Origin: a virus
Lineage: Duplodnaviria > Heunggongvirae > Uroviricota > Caudoviricetes
Reading direction: 5' to 3' (one strand)
DNA: 46,809 nucleotides
Virus record (IMG/VR): IMGVR_UViG_2531839193_000010
The notes under the pieces were generated by a model, which did no database searches, was not told where the DNA came from, and was given only the letters and a program-made list of their open reading frames with translations. Positions 1 to 46,809 of this stretch are shown here, one piece after another; the stretch's first letter is position 1; the number at the start of each line of letters is the position of its first letter. A program made the position numbers and the translations under genes.

Positions 1-89
1 TTGCCTCCCCCCGTTGATGGGTAAAATAGCCGCAATTTTTCGTTTTCAACAAGCGCGGCGCGATGCCGCTTACTCAAGAAGAAAGAATT

Positions 90-164
90 ATGACGTTGTC
101 TCCTTATTTGCAAGAGGTGGCGAAGCGCCGCACTTTTGCCATTATTTCTCACCCCAATAATTAA
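90..164 (+). pseudogene. prfC: 5' remnant of prfC (peptide chain release factor 3): 22 native codons, then divergence and stop at the prophage junction (attL about 150-165)
   Basis: ATG at 90 translates [22 protein letters not shown], which I recognise as the PrfC N-terminus; the expected GTPase P-loop (DAGKTT) is replaced by NN-stop, followed by AT-rich DNA and an integrase gene. Confidence 0.6.
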
Positions 165-318
165 GCCCAAATAAAAGCTCTTTTACTCTTTCAAAATCCT
201 TTCAATTAATTGAGTGATAATTATATAACTCATTTAATAACATGATGTTATGTGATTTCTTTGATTGAAAATTCTTTCATGTAACTTTAAATTGATCAGG
301 TTACTTTCATCAAAAATC

Positions 319-375
319 TGTACATGTGCTTGTACATAATGTACAAAACAGCAGAGGTTTTTTGTTATTTGTACA
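319..375. promoter_or_regulatory. Cluster of four palindromic TGTACA hexamers just upstream of int (candidate operator or arm-type site)
   Basis: TGTACA at 319-324, 331-336, 340-345 and 370-375; the middle pair forms TTGTACA-N3-TGTACAA (330-346). Ends 10 nt before the int ATG. Confidence 0.35.
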
Positions 376-384
376 AGGTGAGTA

Positions 385-1608
385 ATGGCGCTGTCTGATG
401 CGTGGTTGCGTTCAGTTGTTGGAAAGGAACGTGATAAGGTTTTGGTTAAATCCGCTCGTGATGGTCTGTCTGTTAGAGTATCACCGAAAGGTCGCGTAGT
501 GTTCCAATATCGTTATCAGTGGGCGGGGAAAGGTGAGCGTCTTGATATCGGAACTTACCCGGCAACTGGACTAAAAGAGGCCAGAGAAGAAGTTATCCGT
601 CTTCGTGGTGAACTCGAGTCAAACCGCAATCCACGATTGGTCAAGCTGGCAGAAAAACGTAAAGCTACTGAAGCCATGACGGTAGAATCTGTGATCCGTG
701 CTTGGTATGAAGCATATTGTGTAAAAAATAAAAAAGGTTCTGAACAGATACTCCGCTCGTTTGAGCTGCACCTGTTCTCTAAAATCGGGAATATCCCTCA
801 CGATGCAGCTACATTGCATGATTGGTTAGAAGTCCTGGAGCCTCTTAGCACTAAGACTCCAGCAATAGCAGACCGATTGCTAATTAACGCAAAGCAGGCC
901 CATGTCTGGGCGTATAAGAGAAAGCTCATTGAAACTCGCCCGCTGTCGGATATCACGGGTAAAGATATGGATATCCGTAAAGGTCAGAAGAAACGGTTTC
1001 TGACACATGATGAAATTAAAATCCTTTATGCTGCGATCGATGGTTCTCGAATGGTTCCTAAATACCGGGCCTTCATTAAACTATTGCTGCATTTTGGTTG
1101 CCGTAGTTCAGAGCTAATTACTGCCAAGGTGGACGATTTTGATTTCATTAATAAAATATGGACTGTACCACCAGAACGACATAAGACAGGGGATATAACA
1201 GGCGAACCGCTAAAGCGGCCCATTATTGAACCGGTTGAAGAGCTTATAAAATACGTTATCTCTATGAACAACGGTTCCGATATGCTTTTTACTAAGGAAG
1301 GAAGCAGGGAACCAGTTGGTCGGACATCATTGCAGTCGCTGCCTTACAATTTAATGCAGTACGCATGGCGGCGTTTGGGGTATCAATTTCCTCATTGGTC
1401 TCTTCATGATTTGAGACGAACAGCACGAACAAACTTTTCTGATCTTACTGCGCCTCATATTGCTGAAATAATGCTCGGTCATAAACTGCCAGGTGTATGG
1501 CAAGTTTATGACAAGAGTGATTATCTAGAAGAACAGCGTAAAGCCTACCAGGCATGGTGGGAGAGAGTTGAATCGATTGTTACTTGTACTCGTTCAGGCT
1601 CGAAATGA
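385..1608 (+). CDS. int: Phage tyrosine integrase (site-specific recombinase)
   Basis: 407-aa ORF with SD-like AAGGTGAG upstream; C-terminal catalytic region has HDLRRT, LGH and a Tyr near the C-terminus, typical of tyrosine recombinases; adjacent to the prfC junction. Confidence 0.9.
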   Translation: MALSDAWLRSVVGKERDKVLVKSARDGLSVRVSPKGRVVFQYRYQWAGKGERLDIGTYPATGLKEAREEVIRLRGELESNRNPRLVKLAEKRKATEAMTVESVIRAWYEAYCVKNKKGSEQILRSFELHLFSKIGNIPHDAATLHDWLEVLEPLSTKTPAIADRLLINAKQAHVWAYKRKLIETRPLSDITGKDMDIRKGQKKRFLTHDEIKILYAAIDGSRMVPKYRAFIKLLLHFGCRSSELITAKVDDFDFINKIWTVPPERHKTGDITGEPLKRPIIEPVEELIKYVISMNNGSDMLFTKEGSREPVGRTSLQSLPYNLMQYAWRRLGYQFPHWSLHDLRRTARTNFSDLTAPHIAEIMLGHKLPGVWQVYDKSDYLEEQRKAYQAWWERVESIVTCTRSGSK

Positions 1609-1722
1609 TATTTTGCGTAGCTAGAACGCAATCAAATCTAGCAGTCCGCTTTGTTCGGAGTTCGGACATTATGAGTTGGCAAGTAAAGTAGCTTGCTAGG
1701 AAGCCGGATTTGCACGGTCGGT

Positions 1723-1790
1723 ATAATAAGATGTAACCCCTTGCCTTCATTTACTCGAATGAACGTGCACATTGGATAGGAGGAAAAGGA
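1723..1790 (+). promoter_or_regulatory. Candidate own promoter and RBS for the SIR2-domain gene
   Basis: Perfect TATAAT at 1723-1728 (no clean -35 at 17 bp spacing) and AGGAGG at 1778-1783, 7 nt before the ATG at 1791. Confidence 0.3.
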
Positions 1791-4700
1791 ATGCAATTCA
1801 TTACCAACGGCCCTGATATTCCTGATGAGCTTTTGCAGGCGCACGAGGAAGGGCGCGTTGTGTTCTTCTGTGGAGCAGGCATTTCCTACCCTGCTGGTTT
1901 ACCTGGTTTCAAAGGGTTGGTAGAACTAATTTACCAGAGGAACGGAACAACACTTTCAGAAATTGAGCGTGAGGTTTTCGAGCGTGGGCAATTTGACGGC
2001 ACATTAGATTTGCTGGAACGGCGCTTACCAGGGCAGCGTATAGCCGTCCGACGCGCGTTGGAAAAAGCCCTTAAGCCAAAGCTCCGTCGTAGGGGCGCTA
2101 TTGATACTCAGGCGGCGCTGTTACGTTTAGCCCGTAGCCGCGAGGGTGCCCTTCGATTGGTCACTACCAACTTTGACCGTCTCTTTCATGTGGCAGCTAA
2201 ACGTACAGGCCAGGCTTTTCAGGCCTATGTAGCGCCGATGCTGCCAATTCCAAAAAACAGCCGCTGGGATGGACTTGTATACCTGCATGGGCTGTTACCG
2301 GAAAAGGCGGATGATACTGCCCTGAATCGTCTGGTTGTTACCAGCGGTGACTTTGGCTTGGCTTATCTCACTGAGCGTTGGGCAGCTCGCTTTGTGAGTG
2401 AGTTATTTCGTAACTATGTGGTCTGCTTCGTTGGCTACAGCATCAACGACCCGGTACTGCGCTACATGATGGATGCGCTTGCAGCAGATCGGAGGCTCGG
2501 TGAAGTCACACCACAAGTATGGGCACTGGGGGAGTGTGAGCCGGGGCAGGAGCACCGGAAAGCCATCGAGTGGGAGGCCAAAGGGGTCACTCCTATCCTT
2601 TACACCGTACCGGCGGGCTCCACTGATCATTCAGTGCTGCATCAAACGTTGCACGCTTGGGCAGATACTTATCGAGATGGTATACAGGGCAAAGAGGCTA
2701 TAGTCGTCAAACATGCTCTGGCCCGCCCGCAGGACAGCACTCGTCAGGACGATTTCGTTGGTCGGATGTTGTGGGCCTTGTCAGATAAATCAGGTTTACC
2801 AGCAAAACGCTTTGCGGAACTCAATCCTGCACCGCCGCTGGATTGGTTATTGAAAGCTTTCTCGGACGAACGATTTAAATACAGCGATCTGCCACGCTTT
2901 TGTGTATCTCCGCATGTCGAAATTGACCCGAAACTCCGATTCAGTCTGGTTCAGCGTCCTGCGCCCTATGAGCTGGCCCCGCAGATGTCGCTGGTTTCTG
3001 GATGTGTCAGTGCTAGCAAATGGGATGACGTAATGTCCCATATAGCCCGTTGGCTAGTTCGTTATCTGGGCGACCCTAGGTTGATCATATGGATTGCTGA
3101 ACGCGGCGGACAAATACACGACCGTTGGATGTTTCTGATTGAGAGCGAACTAGATCGCTTAGCAGCACTGATGCGGGAGCGTAAGACTTCTGAGTTAGAT
3201 GAAATTCTCTTGCATTCCCCCCTGGCTATTCCTGGTCCACCTATGTCTACTTTATGGCGGCTTCTGCTTAGTGGTCGTGTGAAATCGCCATTGCAGAACC
3301 TGGATTTGTATCGTTGGCAAAACCGCTTAAAGAATGAAGGCTTGACGACTACATTGCGCTTGGAGTTACGCGAGTTGCTTTCTCCCAAGGTTATGTTGAG
3401 GCGGCCGTTTCGCTATAGTGAAGACGATTCGAGCAGCACTGATGAACCCTTGCGAATCAAGCAATTGGTGGATTGGGAGCTGGTGCTGACTGCTGATTAC
3501 GTACGTTCAACCCTGTTCGACCTTGCTGACGAGTCATGGAAATCGTCCTTGCCATACCTGTTGGAAGATTTTCAGCAGTTGTTGCGTGATGCACTGGACT
3601 TGTTGCGGGAGTTGGGAGAGTCCGACGATCGTCACGACCGCTCGCATTGGGATTTGCCGTCCATCACTCCGCACTGGCAGAACCGGGGGTTCCGCGATTG
3701 GGTGAGCCTGATTGAATTACTTCGGGATTCATGGTTAGCCGTTCGATCCAAAGACAGCGATCAGGCCACGCGCATTGCTCAGAATTGGTTTGAGTTGCCA
3801 TATCCCACCTTCAAACGTCTGGCACTGTTTGCCGCAAGCCAAGACAACTGCATACCACCTGAGCGGTGGGTTAATTGGTTGTTAGAGGACGGTTCATGGT
3901 GGTTGTGGGCCACGGATACTAGGCGAGAGGTATTCAGACTGTTTGTTTTGCAGGGACGACATCTGACAGGAATTGCACAAGAGCGTCTGGAAACTGCTAT
4001 CTTGGCAGGGCCTCCGCGCGAGATGTACGAGGATAATTTGGAAGCAGACAGGTGGCATTATTTGGTGGCTCATTCCGTCTGGTTGTGTCTAGCGAAGCTC
4101 AGGGGAGCGGGCCTTGTTTTGGGAGAGTCTGCGGCTACACGTTTGACGGAAATATCCACAGCATACCCAAAATGGCAACTGGCAACCAACGAGCGTGATG
4201 AATTCTCTCACTGGATGAGCGGAACCGGTGATCCAGGCTTCGAGGAGAGTATAGATGTCGACATTGCGCCCCGTAAGTGGCAGGAATTAGTGCAATGGCT
4301 CGCAAAGCCTATGCCAGAAAGACTGCCTTTCTATGAGGACACTTGGAGTGATGTTTGCCGTACGCGCTTTTTTCACAGTCTGTATGCGTTAAGTAAACTA
4401 TCACAAGATGATGTGTGGCCTGTTGGTCGGTGGCGTGAAGCTCTGCAGACTTGGGCTGAACCAGGGATGATTTTGCGTTCGTGGCGGTACGCCGCACCGT
4501 TGGTGCTTGACATGCCTGACGCAGTACTTCAGGAGATTTCCCACGCTGTCACTTGGTGGATGGAGGAGGCTTCGAAGACCATCCTCTGCCACGAGGAGAT
4601 TCTACTGGCCCTTTGTCGTCGGGTTCTGATGATAGAAACAAGCCCAGAGTCTAGCACCATTCGAAACGGAATTGAGACCTATGATCCTGTTTCTACGGCG

Positions 4701-5618
4701 ATCAATCATCCCATTGGGCATGTCACGCAATCACTGATCACCCTATGGTTCAAACAGAACCCGAATGACAATGATTTGCTTCCTGTTGAATTGAAAACAC
4801 TTTTCACCAAATTGTGTAATGTACAGATAGAGCTATTCCGCCATGGTCGGGTGTTGCTGGGGTCGCGGCTGATCGCATTTTTTCGCGTAGATCGACCTTG
4901 GACCGAACAGTATCTATTGCCCTTGTTTGCTTGGAGTAATCCCGTCGAAGCAAAAGCTGTGTGGGAAGGCTTCCTCTGGTCGCCACGCCTGTATGAACCG
5001 TTGCTGATAGCTTTCAAGTCAGATTTTTTGGAGAGCGCCAATCACTATTCTGATCTTGGCGAGCACCGGCAGCAATTCGCTACTTTCCTGACTTATGCAG
5101 CTCTGGGCCCTACCGAGGGATATACCGTGGAGGAGTTCCGAACGGCAATTAGTGCTCTTCCACAAGAAGGTCTGGAGGTAGCCGCGCAGGCGTTATACCA
5201 GGCACTTGAAGGTGCGGGCGATCAGCGCGAGGAGTATTGGAAAAATCGTGTCCAGCCATTTTGGCAACAGGTTTGGCCAAAGTCCCGCAACTTGGCCACC
5301 CCACGCATATCCGAATCGTTGACTCGTATGGTGATTGCTGCCCGAGGTGAATTTCCGGCGGCTTTGGCAGTGGTGCAGGACTGGCTGCAACCGCTCGAAC
5401 ACCTTAGCTACGACGTTCGCCTTTTGCTAGAATCAGATATTTGCAGCCGATATCCTGCGGACGCTCTATCCCTGCTGAATGCCGTGATTGCCGAACAACA
5501 CTGGGGGCCTCGAGAGTTGGGGCAATGCTTGCTTCAAATTGTTCAAGCTGCTCCACAACTGGAGCAAGATGTTCGTTATCAGCGATTAAATGAATATTCT
5601 CGAAGGCGCAGCGTGTGA
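1791..5618 (+). CDS. Large SIR2-like (sirtuin/NADase) domain protein with ~950-aa alpha-helical Trp/Leu-rich C-terminal region; candidate single-gene anti-phage defence protein (DSR-like architecture)
   Basis: 1275-aa intact ORF with strong RBS. N-terminus carries sirtuin-type motifs: CGAGISYPAGLPGFKG (Gly-rich NAD loop, residues 27-42), TTNFD (Asn127) and YLHG (His166). Sits between int and xis, a typical prophage cargo position. Confidence 0.8.
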   Translation: MQFITNGPDIPDELLQAHEEGRVVFFCGAGISYPAGLPGFKGLVELIYQRNGTTLSEIEREVFERGQFDGTLDLLERRLPGQRIAVRRALEKALKPKLRRRGAIDTQAALLRLARSREGALRLVTTNFDRLFHVAAKRTGQAFQAYVAPMLPIPKNSRWDGLVYLHGLLPEKADDTALNRLVVTSGDFGLAYLTERWAARFVSELFRNYVVCFVGYSINDPVLRYMMDALAADRRLGEVTPQVWALGECEPGQEHRKAIEWEAKGVTPILYTVPAGSTDHSVLHQTLHAWADTYRDGIQGKEAIVVKHALARPQDSTRQDDFVGRMLWALSDKSGLPAKRFAELNPAPPLDWLLKAFSDERFKYSDLPRFCVSPHVEIDPKLRFSLVQRPAPYELAPQMSLVSGCVSASKWDDVMSHIARWLVRYLGDPRLIIWIAERGGQIHDRWMFLIESELDRLAALMRERKTSELDEILLHSPLAIPGPPMSTLWRLLLSGRVKSPLQNLDLYRWQNRLKNEGLTTTLRLELRELLSPKVMLRRPFRYSEDDSSSTDEPLRIKQLVDWELVLTADYVRSTLFDLADESWKSSLPYLLEDFQQLLRDALDLLRELGESDDRHDRSHWDLPSITPHWQNRGFRDWVSLIELLRDSWLAVRSKDSDQATRIAQNWFELPYPTFKRLALFAASQDNCIPPERWVNWLLEDGSWWLWATDTRREVFRLFVLQGRHLTGIAQERLETAILAGPPREMYEDNLEADRWHYLVAHSVWLCLAKLRGAGLVLGESAATRLTEISTAYPKWQLATNERDEFSHWMSGTGDPGFEESIDVDIAPRKWQELVQWLAKPMPERLPFYEDTWSDVCRTRFFHSLYALSKLSQDDVWPVGRWREALQTWAEPGMILRSWRYAAPLVLDMPDAVLQEISHAVTWWMEEASKTILCHEEILLALCRRVLMIETSPESSTIRNGIETYDPVSTAINHPIGHVTQSLITLWFKQNPNDNDLLPVELKTLFTKLCNVQIELFRHGRVLLGSRLIAFFRVDRPWTEQYLLPLFAWSNPVEAKAVWEGFLWSPRLYEPLLIAFKSDFLESANHYSDLGEHRQQFATFLTYAALGPTEGYTVEEFRTAISALPQEGLEVAAQALYQALEGAGDQREEYWKNRVQPFWQQVWPKSRNLATPRISESLTRMVIAARGEFPAALAVVQDWLQPLEHLSYDVRLLLESDICSRYPADALSLLNAVIAEQHWGPRELGQCLLQIVQAAPQLEQDVRYQRLNEYSRRRSV

Positions 5619-5785
5619 AAGTGACAGGCGTTGGACAGTGCGAACTGTGGAGCCTAACAAGGTAAAGACACTCTAACTGATAATGCTGCGCCGCTCGTGC
5701 AATGCAATACAGTTTTTATCTAGCGGTGAATTATGGTGTTAAAAGTTAGCCCCTGACACAGGGTGGGTAGTTGGCTCTGTGTCAT

Positions 5786-5823
5786 TGATGGGTATTAGTT
5801 CTGATATGAGCTAATACCCATCA
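5786..5823. repeat. Perfect 13-bp inverted repeat with 12-nt spacer at the 3' end of the early-left operon
   Basis: TGATGGGTATTAG (5786-5798) and CTAATACCCATCA (5811-5823); right arm overlaps the stop codon of the AlpA-like gene; no U-run on either strand, so not a classic intrinsic terminator. Confidence 0.5.
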
Positions 5824-6015
5824 CTCAATAACTCCAGCAAACCTGTATATCTTGCGTGATGCCCATTTATTTGGGCAGGATTTAATATCAGGATCTGGAA
5901 AGTCAGGCCTGTATTTCTGGCCAGTTCTCCTGTTTACGCTGTTCCAGCGAAGAACGGTCGATACTGAAACGCCACAGAAGTCGGCGACTTGTTTAGTTGT
6001 CATTAAGTTGTTCAT
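5821..6015 (-). CDS. AlpA-family HTH protein, probable excisionase/regulator
   Basis: 64-aa ORF with strong SD (AGGAGG) 7 nt upstream; HTH segment TTKQVADFCGVSVSTVLRWNS followed by a FPDP...K.W motif typical of AlpA/Xis-like proteins; last gene of the early-left operon. Confidence 0.55.
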   Translation of the reverse strand: MNNLMTTKQVADFCGVSVSTVLRWNSVNRRTGQKYRPDFPDPDIKSCPNKWASRKIYRFAGVIE

Positions 6016-6635
6016 TACTTCACCTCCTGCGGTGGCTCCGGTAGCGGCATCCAGTGGGTTACTTTCGATGCCGGTTCTTCCCCATCGTCAGTAACTGCCC
6101 ACCATTTGTTTCTCGACCAATCGTAATACCCTTCGAAGGTATCGCACTCAGTCCAGCCGTAAGACTTACCCCAACACCAAACATACTGTTTATCGTTCGG
6201 CATTCGCTCACTACAGCTTATCCAACCATCCTGAGTTACCGGAGAGTTGCCCGACAGCTTGTTCAACTTGTAAGTCTGACTTACAGGTTTGGCACCATGA
6301 AGCATGGTGGCGCGGCAGGCGTTCCAGCCTTCATCAAAACCGACTATGCCATTATTTAAAGACGGACGAGCATCTGGCACCACCAGTACTGGCTTGGCTA
6401 TATATAGCGGCTGAACATACCAGCCCATTGATAACCAACTGTCAGCAATGTTTTTGCTCCTGGTTATTGCCGGAATACCTAAGCCATTGTCTGAATGCAG
6501 CCATGCCACCGGCTCCTCTTCCAGCGATGCCAGAGCAATTTCATAAGCACGGCGCTCAATATCGTCTCGAACCTCTAGGCTGCTGATTCGTTCTTTGATT
6601 TCTTTAATCAGTTCTTTATTGGTAAATGTGGTCAT
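6015..6635 (-). CDS. Phage protein with C-terminal DUF551-like region
   Basis: 206-aa ORF start-stop coupled to the downstream gene; W/C-rich C-terminal segment (WISCSERMP...WMPLPEPP) recalled as DUF551-like. Confidence 0.65.
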   Translation of the reverse strand: MTTFTNKELIKEIKERISSLEVRDDIERRAYEIALASLEEEPVAWLHSDNGLGIPAITRSKNIADSWLSMGWYVQPLYIAKPVLVVPDARPSLNNGIVGFDEGWNACRATMLHGAKPVSQTYKLNKLSGNSPVTQDGWISCSERMPNDKQYVWCWGKSYGWTECDTFEGYYDWSRNKWWAVTDDGEEPASKVTHWMPLPEPPQEVK

Positions 6636-6997
6636 TATGCTCCAGCCTCCGGCGCTTTGGGCATTACTGCCCAGTGAGTGATATTGAAGTTTTCAAGGTC
6701 CCCGACCTGAAATGTCCACTGCCATTCTCCGGTTTCTTTTTGTCCCCAGGTGTACCAGAGAGAACGCCAGCCAATCAGCCAGCCTTCTCCGTTAGCATCA
6801 AATAACAGAACACTTTCATTTGCTGGTGGCAGTTCAGCTGACACTGGTATTATTTTGTTTTCCAGTGCCGCACATTTAGCTTCAAGCGCGTCGAATTTAC
6901 GTACCAGGTACTCAGCATTTGTTTCGTTCACTTTCAGATCTCGCGGTACACATTTCCCGCGAAGAAACCCTTCCATTTCGAAAACATTCATGCGCAT
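6635..6997 (-). CDS. Hypothetical phage early protein
   Basis: 120-aa ORF in operon context, overlapping neighbours by a few nt; no recognisable motif. Confidence 0.55.
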   Translation of the reverse strand: MRMNVFEMEGFLRGKCVPRDLKVNETNAEYLVRKFDALEAKCAALENKIIPVSAELPPANESVLLFDANGEGWLIGWRSLWYTWGQKETGEWQWTFQVGDLENFNITHWAVMPKAPEAGA

Positions 6998-7524
6998 TTG
7001 CGTAACTCCGATAACTCGTTAAAACGTTCCATAAACATCCCGTAGGCATGGCCAGGTGCCAGTGGAATCACGTTGAACATCTCTGTTGCCGGGATGCCTT
7101 CCAGTACAGGCCAGAAAGAGCCATCATCAAGCCCGAGATCGCGGCGTTCGGTTGCCAGCATGATAAGATCGGCATATTTCACGGGCGTACTCATAACTGG
7201 GGGTAACCCGTATTTCTCACGGATTACGGCATCTATTTTTTCTTCCATCCGTTTATAGTCAGGAAGAAGGCGTTTCAGTGGTGCGGGGATGTCCTGGCAA
7301 TACGCTTCTGTTGCATCATGCATTAACGCTTCAAAAGCAAACTCCTCCGGTACCAGCTGGCTGCAAAGCACCGCATGTTGGGCAACGCTGTAGAAGTGTG
7401 AAAGATGACCAGCAAAGCGACAGATATTTGAAAGGGAAACCGCGATATCGTTAATATCGATGTTGTCTTTATTTATCCTGTCATAATAAAAATGCTTCCC
7501 GGAAAAAGTTTTAATAAATGACAT
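6988..7524 (-). CDS. HD-domain phosphohydrolase (5'-deoxynucleotidase-like, YfdR-like)
   Basis: Start reassigned to the internal ATG at 7524 (MSFIKTF...) preceded by GGAG; contains H...HD metal-binding motifs (HLSHFYSVAQH, LMHDATE). Confidence 0.7.
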   Translation of the reverse strand: MSFIKTFSGKHFYYDRINKDNIDINDIAVSLSNICRFAGHLSHFYSVAQHAVLCSQLVPEEFAFEALMHDATEAYCQDIPAPLKRLLPDYKRMEEKIDAVIREKYGLPPVMSTPVKYADLIMLATERRDLGLDDGSFWPVLEGIPATEMFNVIPLAPGHAYGMFMERFNELSELRKCA

Positions 7525-7652
7525 TTTGTTCTCCACGTTATATGCGCTGCACCGCGCTGAATTCGGGTAAAAGGAAACCCTCACCATCCGGCGATTATTG
7601 AGTTAATTACGTTTCCATAAATGCCCCCGCAGGGGCATTTGCAGTAATGAAA

Positions 7653-8477
7653 TCAGGCGGTGAAAGTACCAATAAAGGTTTCTACTTTGCTGTCTTTGAA
7701 TTTCTCAACAAGCAGATCACGAAATTCGTTAGCCATTTCTTCCTGCACTGCTTCCAGCTGAATAATGCGCAGAACCAGTACAGGACGATCGCCAGTGATA
7801 ATGCTGAGGCGTAATTTAAATGGACGTTCTTTCAGACCTTCAAACGGAACGCATTTAAATTCAAATGCCACTGGCATAATATCTTTGGTCTTCGCTTCGA
7901 CAGACTCCATCAGGGAGCGTTTGCCGCTGAAGTCATTATCTTCAAAATCAGCGGTCTGGTTTGCTTCAATCGTGATTTTACGGACCGCCGCAGCCGCTTT
8001 TGTTGCCTGAATAGCGTCACCATTAGCATCAAAGCCCACAAGGTAGTCGGCCCAGTCTTCAATCCATTCTGCCAGTGACTTCTGGGAGTTACGCTCGCCA
8101 TTAACAGACAACAGAGCAGAGAACGGTGCTGTCTTTTTCAGTTTGAGTGTGGCGGTGTTATCTGCGTGACCTGGTTCACCAATAGTACCCAGGTTAAGCA
8201 CACTGACGGCTCGCATATTATCGGCATCGATAAAGCAGCGGGTGCCTTCATCTGCAAGATCTTTAGAATAACGGGTAAAGTCATCGATGCTGGCAGTGGA
8301 AAGCGCACCACGGAAACGGAAGCGATTTAAATTAAATTTTTCCAGATCATGAATGCGGAAATTCTCAGGCAATGCCACAGCATCGGCACCAATCTTACTG
8401 ATAATTTCATTAACACCCTGAGCAGAAATAAGGGCATGGATTTGATTAATTGCGGTTGCGTCTAAGTTCTGAGACAT
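7653..8477 (-). CDS. DUF2303 (YfdQ-like) phage protein
   Basis: 274-aa ORF; resembles E. coli CPS-53 prophage YfdQ from memory (not verified). Confidence 0.7.
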
Positions 8478-8543
8478 AATAAGTCCTCACTATATTAAAG
8501 ATATTCAGTGATAAGATGAATAATTAGTTTATTAAAAACGATA

Positions 8544-8906
8544 TTAACGACCTGCTGCGCGGAGTTTTCCGTCAGGTTCACCGGCAAGAGTCAGTAATTG
8601 TCCCTGGTCTTCCTGCAGAATAGTCAGGCGACCACCGCGATTGACATACATCGGCGTTTCGGTGGTGTCTTCTTCGGAAATTTTCCCGCGGTTAGTCGGG
8701 CGAACATATGAGAGTTTGTGTTTGATTTTCACACGGTTCTCATCAAACGGTTCGATTTCCAGGTTGAGCGAGACCTTACCTTTGGTTTTCGTGTTCATCA
8801 CACCGGAAGCGACTTCACTGAGAACAGCGCCGATTTTGGTTTCAAATACGCCGCCGTCCAGCTCCCCGATAAATGCCTGCACATCAGTACTGCGTTCGCT
8901 AGCCAT
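8544..8906 (-). CDS. Small phage early protein (YfdP-like)
   Basis: Start placed at the ATG at 8904-8906 (MASERST...) with AGGAG 7 nt upstream; the longer six-frame ORF to 9224 runs into a structured non-coding region. Confidence 0.6.
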   Translation of the reverse strand: MASERSTDVQAFIGELDGGVFETKIGAVLSEVASGVMNTKTKGKVSLNLEIEPFDENRVKIKHKLSYVRPTNRGKISEEDTTETPMYVNRGGRLTILQEDQGQLLTLAGEPDGKLRAAGR

Positions 8907-17797: not shown

Positions 17798-18010
17798 TCA
17801 TGAAAGGTAAACATTGGCAGCTGATGGTCCACGCAGACCATTTATCCGGCAAAATTCCACGCGTAATCCGGTGGTAATTTCTTCTGCATCACGGAGATTG
17901 AGCGCTGAAACATGAAGCTGGACATCGATACGACCATCGGATGGGGTTATAAGACCTTTGCCGCTTTTGCCGTCAAAGGTTTTGAGAATTCCTGTCATTT
18001 TACGGGACAA
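17798..18010 (-). CDS. Cold-shock-domain protein (CspF/CspH-like)
   Basis: 70-aa ORF with CSD fold signature ([17 protein letters not shown]...) but divergent RNA-binding motifs, as in the CspF/H subfamily. Confidence 0.8.
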
Positions 18011-18310
18011 AAAAATTCCTTAATACTGATAACTTGGCGCACTATACACACGTTCCTGAAGAAAGCTATAGTTTTTTGATGGGGTTGAAGATGGCTGGAT
18101 GTCTAAAATAAACATTGCTTCATATGTTCAACTATGCGTTAATGATTGCGTCGGTTTGAAGAACAGACGATATACGAAGTAGTTTACTAAAGCAGTTCTC
18201 ATTTCAGGTGTTATTCACTTATTCCTTCTTTGAGTCTCTCCAATTAAGTACGAAGTCGTTTCTGTTATACAAGCCATTTATGCCGAAAGGCTCAAGTTAA
18301 GGAATGTAGA

Positions 18311-18526
18311 ATGTCAAATAAAATGACTGGTTTAGTAAAATGGTTTAACGCTGATAAAGGTTTTGGCTTTATTTCTCCTGTTGATGGTAGTAAAGATGTG
18401 TTTGTGCATTTTTCTGCGATTCAGAATGATAATTATCGAACCTTATTTGAAGGACAAAAGGTTACCTTCTCTGTAGAGAGTGGTGCTAAAGGTCCAGCAG
18501 CAGCAAATGTCATCATTACTGATTAA
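18311..18526 (+). CDS. Cold shock protein (CspB-like)
   Basis: 71-aa [41 protein letters not shown]... with canonical RNP1/RNP2 motifs; long AT-rich 5' leader. Confidence 0.85.
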
Positions 18527-18808
18527 AATTCATAGTTTGTCTGTATACGATAACGAAGAAGGCTGATGCCTGAGTGGAGATACAGACAGAGTGGTGAATA
18601 TTGGATCTCTTTAATAAATAGTAAGGAGGTCCAATACATGAAACAATGGCCAGCATATTTGGCAATAACTTAATCAGGAAAAGTATGCTAACCATTGTGG
18701 TGAAGTGCAGGTTTGCTGCATGAATAGTTTTACAGCAGAAGCTAACTGCTGGCATAGCAAAACAAAGTGCGTAAGTGGATGACTCCCACAAAAAGCACCA
18801 CAATATTA

Positions 18809-25959: not shown

Positions 25960-27467
25960 TGGCAATTCTTGATGATGTGATTGGCGTTTTTTCACCTGGA
26001 TGGAAAGCGGCAAGGCTGCGTTCCCGTGCGGTGATCCAGGCTTATGAAGCCGTAAAAACGACGCGGACACACAAAGCCCGACGGGAGAACCGAACTGCCG
26101 ACCAGCTAAGCCAGTACGGGGCCGTGTCGTTACGTGAGCAGGCCCGTTACCTTGATAACAACCACGATCTGGTTATTGGTGTATTTGACAAGCTGGAAGA
26201 ACGGGTGGTGGGGAAAAACGGGATTATTGTCGAGCCACATCCGGTATTACGCAATGGGGCCATTGCCCGTGATCTGGCAGCGGAGATTCGCACCCGATGG
26301 AGTGAATGGTCTGTCAGCCCGGAAGTCACCGGGCAGTTTACCCGTCCGATGCTGGAACGTCTGATGCTGCGTACCTGGCTGCGCGATGGTGAGGTGTTTG
26401 CCCAGATGGTTTCCGGGCGCATAAACAGCCTGACGCCTTCTGCCGGTGTTCATTTCTGGCTGGAGGCGCTCGAGCCAGACTTTATTCCCATGACCAGTGA
26501 TGAGAGCAACAGGCTGAATCAGGGCGTGTTTGTTGATGACTGGGGGCGTCCCGAAAAATATCTGGTGTATAAAAGCCGTCCCGTATCCGGACGGCAGATG
26601 GAAACCAAAGAAGTGGATGCAGAGCGAATGCTGCATCTTAAATTTGTTCGCCGTCTGCACCAGATGCGCGGGACGTCTTTGTTGTCCGGTGTGCTGATCC
26701 GCCTCAGTGCCCTGAAAGATTATGAAGATTATGAGCTGACTGCAGCAAGGATCGCCGCTGCTCTGGGGATGTACATCCGCAAAGGCGACGGGCAGAGCTA
26801 TGAACCGGATGGTAATGGCAGCAAGGATAAGGAACGCGAGCTTACCATTCAGCCAGGCATTATTTACGACGATCTGAAACCCGGCGAAGAAATCGGAATG
26901 GTGAAGTCGGATCGCCCCAATCCTAACCTTGAAACTTTTCGTAATGGTCAGTTACGTGCCGTGGCGGCGGGCAGTCGTCTGAGTTTTTCCAGTACAGCGC
27001 GCAACTATAACGGCACTTACAGCGCCCAGCGTCAGGAGCTGGTTGAATCCACTGATGGCTACCTGATCCTGCAGGACTGGTTTATTGGTGCTGTCACCCG
27101 CCCGATGTATCGTGCCTGGCTGAAACAGGCTGTGGCATCCGGTGTTATCAGGCTACCCCGCGATCTTGACCGTTCTTCACTGTATACCGCGGTGTATTCC
27201 GGACCGGTGATGCCGTGGATTGACCCTGTTAAGGAGGCTGAGGCCTGGAAAATCCAGATTCGTGGTGGAGCGGCGACAGAATCAGACTGGGTACGTGCTG
27301 GTGGTCGTAATCCGGATGATGTCAAACGTCGGCGCAAGGCCGAAATTGATGAAAACCGCAAACTGGATCTGGTATTTGATACCGATCCGGCCAGTGATAA
27401 AGGAGGCAGCAGTGCCGCAACGAAACGACAGGAGCCGCAGCACACCGACGACCAGTCCGAAGAATAA
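25959..27467 (+). CDS. Portal protein
   Basis: Start reassigned to the ATG at 25959 (TGATG overlap with the W-like stop); 502 aa; position and size typical of lambda-family portals. Confidence 0.85.
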   Translation: MAILDDVIGVFSPGWKAARLRSRAVIQAYEAVKTTRTHKARRENRTADQLSQYGAVSLREQARYLDNNHDLVIGVFDKLEERVVGKNGIIVEPHPVLRNGAIARDLAAEIRTRWSEWSVSPEVTGQFTRPMLERLMLRTWLRDGEVFAQMVSGRINSLTPSAGVHFWLEALEPDFIPMTSDESNRLNQGVFVDDWGRPEKYLVYKSRPVSGRQMETKEVDAERMLHLKFVRRLHQMRGTSLLSGVLIRLSALKDYEDYELTAARIAAALGMYIRKGDGQSYEPDGNGSKDKERELTIQPGIIYDDLKPGEEIGMVKSDRPNPNLETFRNGQLRAVAAGSRLSFSSTARNYNGTYSAQRQELVESTDGYLILQDWFIGAVTRPMYRAWLKQAVASGVIRLPRDLDRSSLYTAVYSGPVMPWIDPVKEAEAWKIQIRGGAATESDWVRAGGRNPDDVKRRRKAEIDENRKLDLVFDTDPASDKGGSSAATKRQEPQHTDDQSEE

Positions 27468-27480
27468 TTCCTGGTTCAGG

Positions 27481-29439
27481 ATGCAGGCTGGTCACCAGAG
27501 TGACGCGGATATTTATATTTATGACGAGATTGGTTTCTGGGGTGTTACAGCGAAGCAGTTTATCAGTGATCTGAATGCACTGGGCGATATCACCCACATT
27601 AATCTCCATATTAATTCACCGGGTGGCGATGTCTTTGAAGGCATCGCCATTTTTAATGCGCTGAAAACACATGGTGCGTCCATTACCGTTTATGTCGACG
27701 GTGTGGCGGCGTCAATGGCGTCGGTCATTGCGATGGTGGGAAACCCGGTCATTATGCCGGAAAACACCTTCATGATGATTCATAAACCATTTGGCTTTAC
27801 GGGCGGTGATGCGGAGGACATGCGCACCTATGCCGACCTGCTCGATAAAGTTGAGGCGGTTCTGTTACCCGCTTATGCACAGAAAACCGGGAAAACCACC
27901 GATGAAATTGCTGTCATGCTGGCGGATGAGACCTGGATGTCCGGTGCCGAATGTCTGGCACATGGATTTGCTGATCAGGTATCGCCAGCCGTTAAGGCAA
28001 TGGCATGTATTCAGTCAAAACGTACAGAGGAATTTAAAAAGATGCCGGAATCCATTCGAAACATGATTACTCCGCCACGCAACAGTGCTCCACGCGTACA
28101 GGATGATGAACCTGCAGCCTCCCGGACGCCAGTGCAGGCAGCAGCACCCGTGGTGGATGAAAACAGTATCCGTGCGCAGGTACTGGCAGAGCAAAAAGCG
28201 CGTGTAAACGGTATTAATGATCTGTTTGCCATGTTTGGCGGGCGTTATCAGACGCTGCAGGCCCAGTGTCTTGCCGATCCTGAATGTTCGCTGGAGCAGG
28301 CCCGCGAAAAGTTGTTGAACGAGATGGGGCGCGAGTCCACGCCATCCAATAAAAATACCCCGGCTCATATTTATGCCGGTAACGGTAATTTTGTGGGGGA
28401 CGGGATCCGCCAGGCGCTGATGGCGCGTGCCGGATTTGAAAAAACCGAACGTGATAATGTCTACAACGGGATGACCCTGCGTGAATATGCCCGTATGTCA
28501 CTGACTGAACGGGGTATTGGGGTTTCCGGTTATAACCCGATGCAGATGGTCGGTGCGGCGTTCACACACAGTACGTCTGACTTCGGTAATATTCTGCTGG
28601 ATGTTGCGAACAAAGCCATTCTGCAGGGCTGGGAAGATGCCCCTGAAACCTATGAACAGTGGACGCGGAAAGGTCAGTTGTCTGATTTTAAAATTGCCCA
28701 TCGCGTGGGTATGGGGGGCTTCAGTGCTCTGCGTCAGGTGCGTGAAGGGGCGGAATATAAATACGTCACCACCGGAGATAAACAGGCCACTATTGCACTG
28801 GCGACCTATGGCGAGCTGTTCAGTATCACCCGTCAGGCCATTATCAATGATGATCTGAATATGCTGACCGATGTCCCGATGAAGCTGGGCCGTGCGGCGA
28901 AATCCACTATTGCCGATCTGGTTTATGCCATTCTGACGTCTAACCCGAAAATCTCCACAGATAATGTAAGTCTGTTCGATAAAGCGAAACATGCAAACGT
29001 ACTGGAGGGCGCTGCAATGGACGTGGCATCGCTGGATAAAGCCCGCCAGTTGATGCGTGTTCAGAAAGAGGGGGAGCGTCATCTGAATATTCGTCCTGCG
29101 TTCGTACTGGTACCGACGGCGATGGAGTCTGTTGCTAACCAGGTCATTCGCTCCTCAAGTGTCAAGGGGGCTGACATTAACGCCGGTATTATTAACCCGG
29201 TGAAAGATTTTGCGACCGTTATTGCAGAGCCTCGTCTTGATGATAACAGCCAGACCACCTTCTACCTGGCTGCGTCAAAAGGCTCCGATACGATTGAAGT
29301 GGCTTATCTCAACGGTGTGGATACGCCATATATTGATCAGATGGAGGGCTTCAGTGTGGATGGCGTGACAACGAAAGTGCGTATTGACGCCGGTGTCGCG
29401 CCAGTTGATCACCGCGGTCTGGTGAAATGTACGGCGTAA
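27481..29439 (+). CDS. Prohead protease (ClpP/S49-like) - scaffold - major capsid fusion protein
   Basis: Start at the ATG at 27481 after the portal stop; N-terminal ClpP-like segment (HINSPGGDVFEGIAIFNALK...ASMASVIAMVG), Ala/Gln-rich linker, C-terminal ~400 aa with major-capsid character. Confidence 0.8.
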   Translation: MQAGHQSDADIYIYDEIGFWGVTAKQFISDLNALGDITHINLHINSPGGDVFEGIAIFNALKTHGASITVYVDGVAASMASVIAMVGNPVIMPENTFMMIHKPFGFTGGDAEDMRTYADLLDKVEAVLLPAYAQKTGKTTDEIAVMLADETWMSGAECLAHGFADQVSPAVKAMACIQSKRTEEFKKMPESIRNMITPPRNSAPRVQDDEPAASRTPVQAAAPVVDENSIRAQVLAEQKARVNGINDLFAMFGGRYQTLQAQCLADPECSLEQAREKLLNEMGRESTPSNKNTPAHIYAGNGNFVGDGIRQALMARAGFEKTERDNVYNGMTLREYARMSLTERGIGVSGYNPMQMVGAAFTHSTSDFGNILLDVANKAILQGWEDAPETYEQWTRKGQLSDFKIAHRVGMGGFSALRQVREGAEYKYVTTGDKQATIALATYGELFSITRQAIINDDLNMLTDVPMKLGRAAKSTIADLVYAILTSNPKISTDNVSLFDKAKHANVLEGAAMDVASLDKARQLMRVQKEGERHLNIRPAFVLVPTAMESVANQVIRSSSVKGADINAGIINPVKDFATVIAEPRLDDNSQTTFYLAASKGSDTIEVAYLNGVDTPYIDQMEGFSVDGVTTKVRIDAGVAPVDHRGLVKCTA

Positions 29440-46263: not shown

Positions 46264-46809
46264 TTATGTGTGAGGTGAATTATAAATAATTTCAGAGTGA
46301 AATTTGGTAATGAATGTGGAGTCATCAGGAATGTCATGCAGTACCAATGCATGAGCTCCTATTTTTACATTATTCCCTATATGCACTTTGCCACCAAGGA
46401 TGGTGGCGTTACAGCCAATGGTTACATTATTTCCTATGACAATATCCATATCATTAAATTCACCGCGAAGTCCAATAGTTACCCCAGGCTTAATTGAACA
46501 ATTTTCACCTATTGTAACTTTGTGACCGATAACAACGCCATTGAGATAAGATATGTCGAACCCTTTACCAATATTTACAGTTAAGGGAACGGTTACATTG
46601 TATTTATCAAGAATGAAGCGTTCTATTTTTCCTGCAATCTTTCGCCGGTATCCGCCTTTATCAAAAAGATATTTTGCTACGCGCCACCAAAATAAATAAC
46701 GTGATCTTCTGTGTTTTATTGCGCGAACAATTGCTTTTCGCCAGGAGAAAGGGCGTTTATAACCTATTACTTCATAGTGTATACACTTTTTAAGTTCACT
46801 AATATTCAT
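46264..46809 (-). CDS. Hexapeptide-repeat (left-handed beta-helix) acetyltransferase; AT-rich cargo gene, possibly truncated at the window edge
   Basis: 181-aa ORF with tandem hexapeptide repeats (VTIGENCSIKPGVTIGLRGE..., IVIGNNVTIGCNATILGGKVHIGNNVKIGAHALV); markedly AT-rich relative to the tail module; the ATG coincides with the last bases of the window. Confidence 0.7.
   Translation of the reverse strand: MNISELKKCIHYEVIGYKRPFSWRKAIVRAIKHRRSRYLFWWRVAKYLFDKGGYRRKIAGKIERFILDKYNVTVPLTVNIGKGFDISYLNGVVIGHKVTIGENCSIKPGVTIGLRGEFNDMDIVIGNNVTIGCNATILGGKVHIGNNVKIGAHALVLHDIPDDSTFITKFHSEIIYNSPHT

Follow-up and report, generated by a model that had tools for sequence, protein, structure and literature searches.

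Organization of the locus

The window, which is the whole stretch of 46,809 nucleotides analyzed here, carries a prophage in which one long gene, dsr1, occupies the interval between the integrase and excisionase genes. We identified the following features at the locus.

142..155, + strand: probable attL core TTATTTCTCACCCC, left end of the prophage, by annotation transfer from Stx2c_JNE082796
385..1608, + strand: tyrosine integrase with a P4-type arm-binding domain (Pfam Phage_integrase, Arm-DNA-bind_3, and Phage_int_M)
about 1651..5770, no strand: cargo module, delimited by blastn against sister phages, with dsr1 as its sole gene
1722..1727, + strand: perfect TATAAT, candidate −10 element for dsr1, read by eye, lacking an acceptable −35 element
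1778..1783, + strand: Shine–Dalgarno sequence AGGAGG, read from the sequence
1791..5618, + strand: dsr1 coding sequence, intact, with an ATG start, 1275 aa plus stop
5751..5763, − strand: GC-rich hairpin with a T-run after it, which may terminate the leftward operon past xis; from a consensus scan
5786..5823, no strand: inverted repeat that overlaps the stop codon of xis, 16 nt and 94% complementary, with a 6-nt loop
5821..6015, − strand: excisionase gene (xis), 64 aa, helix-turn-helix, phrog_1553 "excisionase" (E = 7.7e-36)
27220..29439: HK97-type protease–capsid fusion of the prophage

The left end of the prophage was assigned by comparison with Stx2c_JNE082796, in which positions 258..8856 align with positions 1..8600 of the window (99.5%). 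The segment annotated there as "duplication due to insertion" (399..412) maps to the probable attL core. As this core is present only once in the window, attR lies outside it. Homologues of the integrase carry the same annotation in E. coli genomes and sister phages. The xis product also gave weak HTH_17 and MerR matches, and its homologue in phage 2H10 is annotated as an excisionase. Past xis, we detected the leftward early genes DUF551, YfdR-like, and DUF2303/YfdQ, which places dsr1 convergent with the early-left operon. The Pfam and phrog_1553 assignments thus bear out the position given by the first-pass annotation, namely a slot between integrase and excisionase facing the early-left operon.

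The limits of the cargo module were drawn from blastn comparisons of positions 1..8600 with the sister phages 2H10, Ayreon, and PhiR63_1, in which homology stopped at 1590, 1632, and 1650 and restarted at 5782, 5771, and 5776, respectively. No other stretch of positions 1..8600 is absent from these phages. The GC content of the module is 0.49–0.55, compared with 0.38–0.46 in the integrase gene and 0.44–0.49 in the early-left genes. The segment consists of dsr1 alone, flanked by the integrase and excisionase genes, showing a single-gene organization.

The same slot holds other cargo in the sister phages: Borvo in Ayreon, a 239-aa phrog_8440 protein in 2H10, and a 377-aa phrog_7779 protein in PhiR63_1. 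The phrog_8440 and phrog_7779 proteins had no match in Pfam, PADLOC, or NCBIfam. A 121-aa "hypothetical protein" of PhiR63_1 was also considered as cargo. It overlaps, in antisense, sequence that is homologous to xis (window 5776..6033 against PhiR63_1 2925..3182, 88% match), and we left it out because it is probably a mis-call.

Assignment of the product to Dsr1

The reading frame of dsr1 is intact over its 1275 codons; the closest in-frame stop 5′ of the ATG is at position 1734, and the Shine–Dalgarno sequence ends 7 nt 5′ of the ATG, in agreement with the earlier description of an intact frame with its own strong ribosome-binding site. A 3.8-kb frame combined with a full-length profile match far exceeds anything expected of a chance origin.

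The product matched the NCBIfam Dsr1 equivalog NF041818 with 2060.5 bits (protein residues 1–1271; model positions 1–1263 of 1263), surpassing the model cut-off of 1400 bits by 660 bits. The PADLOC Dsr1 model PDLC02183 gave 2735.6 bits and spanned residues 1–1275 of 1275. Furthermore, exactly the same protein sequence is deposited at NCBI as "anti-phage defense-associated sirtuin Dsr1" and belongs to a 90%-identity cluster with 418 members. Judged by sequence, the product is Dsr1, which had been named and studied by experiment before, and does not represent a new lineage. Later papers cite Gao et al. 2020 for the first description of the family.

As an alternative, we weighed whether the product could be of the DSR2 type, or form a new DSR lineage, and sense the phage tail tube protein. 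DSR2 of Bacillus subtilis is likewise encoded by a single gene, and it depletes NAD+; its SIR2 NADase, whose catalytic residues are Asn and His, is N-terminal and joined to a large helical sensor. The window protein shares the general layout of an N-terminal SIR2 domain and a long, predicted helical C-terminus, and the family profile gave weak matches to two solved structures of DSR2, 8k98 and 8wkt (E = 1.2e-3). Many structures of DSR2 have been solved, 8k98 among them. However, the similarity is confined to residues 18–148 (E ~ 1e-3), within the SIR2 domain, and the sensors are unrelated by sequence. The reported triggers also differ, being the tail tube protein for DSR2 and the major capsid protein for Dsr1. 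PADLOC returned no Dsr2 model at E ≤ 1, against 2736 bits end to end for Dsr1, and the Dsr1 equivalog cut-off was exceeded by the margin given above. The alternative is therefore refuted at the sequence level, and we regard it as scarcely tenable.

The first-pass annotation had proposed a single-gene, NAD+-depleting defense sirtuin of the DSR1/DSR2 type and had left undecided whether it belonged to a described DSR family. The profile search it suggested supports the proposal, as both SIR2_2 (see below) and the Dsr1 models were matched, the latter end to end; the answer to the question is the described family Dsr1. The novelty that had been implied does not hold, since the identical protein already bears the Dsr1 name at NCBI.

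Among 5426 complete E. coli genomes, 76 had a dsr1 match. Nucleotide identity was 99% or higher in 67 of these, and it was at least 94% for every full-length E. coli copy among the matches listed. The intact E. coli copies are annotated dsr1. In all five genomic contexts inspected, dsr1 was located beside the integrase of a prophage adjoining yjjG, with neighbors as in the window. The window allele has S653, T660, S868, and T1098 in the sensor, where the commonest E. coli variants have A, S, R, and I; the sensor differences, these four included, amount to a handful, and every one falls at a position that varies within the family. From the narrow diversity of the E. coli alleles, we infer that the window protein is closely identical to the tested EcDsr1 (WP_029488749.1) and ECOR17 Dsr1. 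In comparison with Dsr1 as described, the window protein has the same length, the same N-terminal SIR2 domain (GAGxS, TTNxD, and the predicted catalytic His), a region of ~950 aa predicted to be a helical sensor, and a single-gene organization, and apart from the sensor residues we found no substantive difference.

The SIR2 domain and the predicted helical region

The coding sequence was divided into two regions, with two predicted catalytic codons in the first.

1791..2780, + strand: SIR2 region, predicted NADase effector, aa 1–330 (Pfam SIR2_2)
2169..2171, + strand: Asn127 codon AAC, predicted catalytic from invariance and the KomC alignment
2286..2288, + strand: His166 codon CAT, predicted catalytic from invariance, the KomC alignment, and the KomC H146N entry
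2781..5615, + strand: C-terminal region, predicted helical-repeat sensor, aa 331–1275, from the end-to-end Dsr1 model coverage

The sole Pfam domain in the 1275 residues was SIR2_2, at aa 123–269 (E = 9e-23). The sirtuin hallmarks noted previously were all found at the positions claimed for them: CGAGIS begins at aa 27, with GAGIS at aa 28–32 (nt 1872–1886), TTNFD occupies aa 125–129 and contains Asn127, and YLHG occupies aa 164–167 and contains His166. GAGxS and TTNxD are motifs with which sirtuins contact NAD+ (PMC12931631). Across 46 relatives with 37–56% identity, T125, T126, N127, D129, H166, and G167 were invariant, and G28, G30, and S32 were kept in at least 90% of the sequences.

A profile search of solved structures matched KomC, DSR2, ThsA, and SIRT3, in each case over the N-terminal region only. 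The solved SIR2 NADase KomC aligned over aa 12–245, placing its N107 and H146 opposite N127 and H166, and a KomC H146N mutant is present among the solved-structure entries. KomC (Kongming) and ThsA (Thoeris) thus share the SIR2_2-type NADase domain with the window protein, the PADLOC match to ThsA being limited to aa 13–230 (E = 3e-5). These two are short, small-molecule-activated effectors of multigene systems, whereas the window protein has its sensor and effector in one chain. In Thoeris, ThsA joins SIR2 to a signal-binding SLOG domain and is encoded next to the TIR protein ThsB. At the window locus, we found no SLOG domain by Pfam, no TIR gene in the neighborhood, and no partner gene beside dsr1.

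The C-terminal region lacked any Pfam domain in aa 331–1275. Its composition is distinctive, with 4.4% Trp and 14.2% Leu past aa 300 versus 1.7% and 12% before. An AF2 model of aa 300–1275, built with 39 homologues of 74–93% identity, was all helix (mean pLDDT 61.0, pTM 0.38), with pLDDT above 80 solely in the final ~300 residues. Composition and prediction together agree with the earlier description of some 950 α-helical, Trp/Leu-rich residues. The model of aa 1–330 from the same depth of homologues (39 sequences, 74–93% identity) reached pLDDT 44.6 and pTM 0.30. The poor quality of both models is attributable to alignments that are too shallow. Of the structure prediction suggested in the first-pass annotation, the predicted all-helical C-terminus stood, and the models lend no support at the level of the fold. 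A Foldseek search with the poor C-terminal model retrieved karyopherin, HEAT, and ARM solenoids only (TM 0.05–0.25), which we would read as "helical repeat" and nothing further.

The search of solved structures gave no match to the sensor, as it returned SIR2 domains only and no entry for Dsr1 or the Avs7 sensor. Among 50%-identity representatives, the sensor region had 2765 relatives, and all of the best 150 of these showed the Dsr1 layout. A preprint describes the Dsr1 sensor as TPR-like and homologous to the bilobed sensor of Avs7, both proteins being triggered by the phage major capsid protein (10.64898/2026.01.04.697583). Avs7 differs in that its effectors vary and it contains a STAND NTPase module, while Pfam detected no NTPase domain in the window protein. 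The Avs families as a group, including Avs5 and Avs7, did not fit the protein: the STAND NTPase (NOD) was not found, PADLOC gave no Avs model, and the only Pfam domain was SIR2_2.

Proposed function and expression of dsr1

Several Dsr1 homologues have been studied experimentally. A DSR1 depleted NAD+ and protected against phage (Garb et al., 10.1101/2021.12.14.472415); in that B. subtilis experiment NAD+ was lost transiently, with no collapse of the culture. The dsr1 gene of ECOR17, carried on a plasmid together with the native promoter, protected MG1655 against T4 lacking nrdC.5, and nrdC.5 restored infection of cells carrying it (Srikant et al., PMC9391042). For E. coli Dsr1, one preprint reports that the major capsid protein of a Drexlerviridae phage acts as the trigger, by way of the TPR-like sensor, and that co-expression led to cell death (10.64898/2026.01.04.697583); the ECOR17 result concerns T4. 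The reported outcomes conflict, as the transient NAD+ loss without collapse in B. subtilis stands against death on co-expression.

Taken with the features of the locus, these reports make it very probable that dsr1 is the single-gene anti-phage defense cargo of a lambdoid prophage next to yjjG, with a product that would deplete NAD+ on infection as reported for homologues. By analogy with the homologues, the lysogen would produce Dsr1 in an inactive form. When another phage infects the cell, the TPR-like sensor at the C-terminus would bind a freshly made structural protein, which for E. coli Dsr1 would be the major capsid protein. Binding would free the N-terminal SIR2 domain to hydrolyze NAD+ through Asn127 and His166, and the loss of NAD+ would halt phage replication. 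Certain phages counter Dsr1, T4 by means of the gene nrdC.5.

The SIR2 domain might instead modify a macromolecule, by deacylating or ADP-ribosylating a target in the phage or its host, with bulk NAD+ depletion not being the protective step. The transient NAD+ loss and the survival of the B. subtilis culture would suit such an activity, and the N-terminal motifs are common to true deacetylases such as SIRT3. Yet the nearest solved relatives by sequence are the NADases KomC, DSR2, and ThsA, NAD+ depletion has been measured for a DSR1 homologue (10.1101/2021.12.14.472415), and Pfam detected neither the zinc-ribbon nor the substrate-binding module of classical sirtuins. We consider a macromolecular target very unlikely and retain NAD+ depletion as the preferred reading.

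A capsid-sensing gene in a phage that builds its own HK97-type capsid would need some means of avoiding self-triggering at induction. Part of that protection could come from the early-left operon, whose convergent transcription would run leftward across dsr1.

We also considered whether dsr1 might be silent or decaying cargo in this prophage. A consensus sigma-70 promoter scan of positions 1500..6200 found none on the + strand 5′ of dsr1, with counts not above those in shuffled sequences, and the gene is broken in some E. coli strains, by an IS1203 insertion in CUVET18-789 and by truncation in three other genomes. Against this, the window copy is intact with its strong ribosome-binding site, and comparison with the E. 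coli GF153 allele, to which it is 94% identical, gives a dN/dS of 0.13, indicating a gene in use. In addition, the perfect TATAAT lies 63 nt 5′ of the ATG, and 300 bp 5′ of ECOR17 dsr1 were enough for function from a plasmid (PMC9391042). Silent or decaying cargo therefore appears highly improbable, and we favor a functional defense gene. The possible terminator of the leftward operon is a weak assignment, because such sites are no more frequent than shuffle expectation.

The int–xis junction of yjjG-side lambdoid prophages may perhaps be a dedicated, exchangeable immunity slot, its uncharacterized occupants being undescribed anti-phage genes; we hold this generalization to be doubtful.

In terms of annotation, the locus is called as an intact, prophage-borne dsr1. 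It is one further case of a temperate phage with a defense gene beside its integrase, which is established knowledge, and it is unremarkable among the 76 complete E. coli genomes with dsr1. It offers a natural copy for questions that concern the whole Dsr1 family, namely structure, cell fate, the capsid trigger, and self-activation in the carrier. Among ten accessory open reading frames of the window, PADLOC detected just a Dam-type methyltransferase and weak helix-turn-helix matches of the repressor.

Family identity and the SIR2 effector

The first-pass annotation had described a giant, intact SIR2-domain ORF of 1275 aa with a strong ribosome-binding site. This observation was confirmed completely, and the residue and codon coordinates of its SIR2 motifs were exact. 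The gene (dsr1), its signals and the motifs of its product (Dsr1) are as follows (gene from the ORF call; signals and motifs read from the sequence or translation).

1722-1727, +, perfect TATAAT without a usable -35, 5' of dsr1
1778-1783, +, Shine-Dalgarno AGGAGG, 7 nt 5' of the ATG
1791..5618, +, dsr1, intact ORF, ATG start, 1275 aa
from aa 27, +, CGAGIS
aa 125-129, +, TTNFD; Asn127 = AAC, 2169-2171
aa 164-167, +, YLHG; His166 = CAT, 2286-2288

The closest in-frame stop 5' of the ATG lies at 1734. The sole Pfam domain in the product was SIR2_2 (aa 123-269; E=8.9e-23; 81 bits, cut-off 24.5); none was found past ~aa 330. The protein matched NCBIfam NF041818, the equivalog 'anti-phage defense-associated sirtuin Dsr1', end to end (2060.5 bits vs a cut-off of 1400), and PADLOC Dsr1 model PDLC02183 over positions 1-1275 of 1275 (2735.6 bits). 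An exact-sequence look-up returned 'MULTISPECIES: anti-phage defense-associated sirtuin Dsr1 [Enterobacteriaceae]' in NCBI. On these matches the product is Dsr1, a described family. The earlier interpretation as a defence sirtuin of the DSR1/DSR2 type was thus supported in its Dsr1 part, while the possibility of a new lineage falls away. Membership of DSR2 is excluded by sequence, being contradicted by PADLOC and by the family profile search against solved structures (KomC 1e-10, DSR2 1.2e-3, ThsA 1.5e-3, SIRT3 5e-3). There is nothing new in dsr1 itself, which already has a name, a model in each of two curated HMM libraries, and characterised homologues in E. coli.

Within the effector (N-terminal SIR2 region, aa 1-330), T125, T126, N127, D129, H166 and G167 were invariant in 46 relatives of 37-56% identity, and G28, G30 and S32 were kept in at least 90% of them. 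The motifs GAGxS and TTNxD are described as contacting NAD+ and as common to the SIR2 domains of Avs5, DSR1, DSR2, ThsA and short Argonautes (PMC12931631). The single Dsr1 sequence found one solved structure, the SIR2 NADase KomC (8zsf), whose N107 and H146 align opposite N127 and H166 of Dsr1; a KomC H146N mutant has its own PDB entry. AlphaFold modelled aa 1-330 poorly (pLDDT 44.6). The SIR2 active site of the window Dsr1 is complete, its frame is intact and it has no partner gene. A macromolecular sirtuin activity in place of NAD+ depletion is disfavoured, since NAD+ loss has been measured for DSR1 and the nearest relatives are NADases.

The cluster at 90% identity that contains the window protein has 418 members. 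Outside it, none of the 119 closest 90%-identity clusters fell below 78% identity in its local alignment, and nearly all these alignments spanned the full 1275 aa; their sources were Enterobacterales, Vibrio, Marinobacter, Rhodocyclales, Halothiobacillus, Acidithiobacillus and Ferrovum. Such conservation is unusual for an immune sensor and implies recent horizontal spread under strong constraint.

The C-terminal sensor and a likely course of action

All solved-structure profile matches were confined to the N-terminal region, and the family profile found no solved structure matching the sensor (C-terminal region, aa 331-1275). Beyond aa 300 the protein contains 4.4% Trp and 14.2% Leu, and the AlphaFold model of aa 300-1275 is helical throughout, albeit poor (pLDDT 61; only the last ~300 residues confident), bearing out the helical, Trp/Leu-rich C-terminus noted at first pass. 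Foldseek with this model returned only generic HEAT/ARM solenoids (TM<0.25). Because the models are poor and these matches generic, the sensor fold is taken from the literature and not from the present analysis: bilobed TPR repeats homologous to the sensor of the STAND NTPase Avs7 (PMC12803255; 10.64898/2026.01.04.697583). Searched alone against representatives of 50%-identity clusters, the sensor had 2765 relatives, 839 of them at E<=1e-30. The best 150 of the 2765 all showed the Dsr1 layout: proteins of ~1250 aa in which the sensor begins near residue 335-345.

In B. subtilis, a cloned DSR1 gave phage protection and reduced NAD+, the loss being transient and without culture collapse (10.1101/2021.12.14.472415). 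The dsr1 gene of ECOR17, carried together with the native 300 bp upstream of it, shields MG1655 from a T4 clone lacking nrdC.5, and nrdC.5 expression brings back T4 infection (PMC9391042). A 2026 preprint found EcDsr1 (WP_029488749.1) active against a few phages and, in a 73-gene library of phage ZL19, the major capsid protein to be the only one that triggers cell death by EcDsr1 (PMC12803255; 10.64898/2026.01.04.697583). The tested E. coli proteins, EcDsr1 and ECOR17 Dsr1, are presumably close in sequence to the window allele, given the narrow diversity of E. coli alleles. By analogy, a likely course of events is that Dsr1 would be made in the lysogen, an incoming phage would produce capsid protein, the sensor would bind it and release the SIR2 domain, NAD+ would be hydrolysed via N127 and H166, and phage replication would then fail, with the cell either dying or recovering.

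The prophage has a head gene of its own.

27220-29439, +, ClpP-type protease fused to an HK97-type major capsid protein (Phage_capsid_4)

Given that a phage major capsid protein reportedly triggers E. coli Dsr1, the question arises how the prophage avoids self-triggering dsr1 on induction. Tolerance of its own capsid by a prophage carrying a capsid sensor is one of two leads worth keeping.

The cargo slot and dsr1 in E. coli

The slot (the integrase-excisionase junction of this lambdoid prophage) was compared with those of three sister phages.

385..1608, +, tyrosine integrase (Pfam Phage_integrase, Arm-DNA-bind_3, Phage_int_M)
5786-5823, inverted repeat of 16 nt (6-nt loop; 94% complementary), overlapping the excisionase stop codon, at the right cargo-junction edge
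5821..6015, -, excisionase, 64-aa HTH protein (phrog_1553 'excisionase', E=7.7e-36; 2H10 homologue annotated excisionase)
2418-4607 of Ayreon (L005), slot occupant, 729-aa BovA (Borvo, CHAT domain; PADLOC E=2e-241)
2472-3191 of 2H10 (L003), slot occupant, 239-aa protein (phrog_8440, a function-unknown PHROG)
1627-2760 of PhiR63_1 (L004), slot occupant, 377-aa protein (phrog_7779, a function-unknown PHROG)

The placement of dsr1 between int and xis, convergent with the early-left operon, proved correct: the integrase lies 5' on the same strand and the excisionase 3' and convergent, followed by the leftward early genes DUF551, YfdR-like and YfdQ/DUF2303. By blastn, homology to sister phages with the same integrase and early-left genes ends at 1590-1650 and restarts at 5771-5782, which delimits a cargo segment of ~4.1 kb with dsr1 as its sole gene. 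GC content is 0.49-0.55 in this segment, 0.38-0.46 in the integrase and 0.44-0.49 in the early genes. The 2H10 and PhiR63_1 occupants, for which Pfam, PADLOC and NCBIfam gave no match, are candidates for defence genes not yet described, and this variable integrase-side slot is the other lead to keep. In PhiR63_1, a 121-aa + strand 'hypothetical protein' (L004 2851-3216) overlaps sequence of excisionase-gene homology on the opposite strand, which shares 88% identity with window 5776..6033, and is probably an annotation error.

We found dsr1 in 76 of 5426 complete E. coli genomes, always chromosomal, 67 of them with at least 99% nucleotide identity to the window gene; every intact copy is annotated dsr1. 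The order rsmC-holD-rimI-yjjG, integrase, dsr1, yfd-type early genes was alike in five genomes. Among phage collection records, only Stx2c_JNE082796 carries dsr1 (99.9% identity, unannotated there). The window Dsr1 differed from the other compared E. coli copies at 4-7 residues, and substitutions at 653, 660, 868 and 1098, sensor positions variable across the family, recurred in most comparisons. Comparison with the E. coli GF153 allele, which is 94% identical, gave a dN/dS of 0.13; the gene is maintained by purifying selection. This selection, together with the intact frame and strong ribosome-binding site, makes it unlikely that dsr1 is silent or decaying cargo, although the scan found no convincing dsr1 promoter and reading the sequence showed only the lone TATAAT lacking a usable -35.

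Between the window (1791-5618) and GF153 (L009 3501-7331), dS was 0.57 in codons 1-330 (SIR2) and 0.09 in the sensor part. Values so uneven suggest that dsr1 is a recombinant mosaic, with effector and sensor halves of different history. Separately, broken copies occur in E. coli: IS1203 splits that of strain CUVET18-789, and in three other genomes dsr1 is truncated to 14-58% of its length and annotated only 'SIR2 family protein' (inactivated copies in NZ_CP115312.1, NZ_AP042682.1, NZ_JALDNN010000001.1 and NZ_CP135595.1).

Other cargo and candidate cargo of the prophage

The interval from the Q antiterminator gene (16623..17375) to the lysis genes (from 19279) carries two genes for cold-shock proteins of 70 and 71 aa.

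17798-18010, -, cold-shock region feature
18150-18593, +, cold-shock region feature
18311-18526, +, cold-shock region feature

Upstream of the + strand gene, Rfam recognises the cspA thermoregulator 5' UTR over its full length (161 bits; gathering score 78). These genes are cargo at the late-operon moron position. A 173-aa ORF (9376-9897, +; phrog_1244), a 'hypothetical protein' in E. coli genome annotation without a match in Pfam, PADLOC or NCBIfam, is oriented opposite to the early-left operon, immediately to the left of the repressor gene (10244..10753), and may mark another moron position. Directly past the tail-fibre assembly gene, on the opposite strand, a 181-aa hexapeptide-repeat acetyltransferase (46264-46809, -), whose start codon forms the window's last bases, resembles CysE, EpsC and WcaB below all curated cut-offs and may be a surface-polysaccharide-modifying moron.
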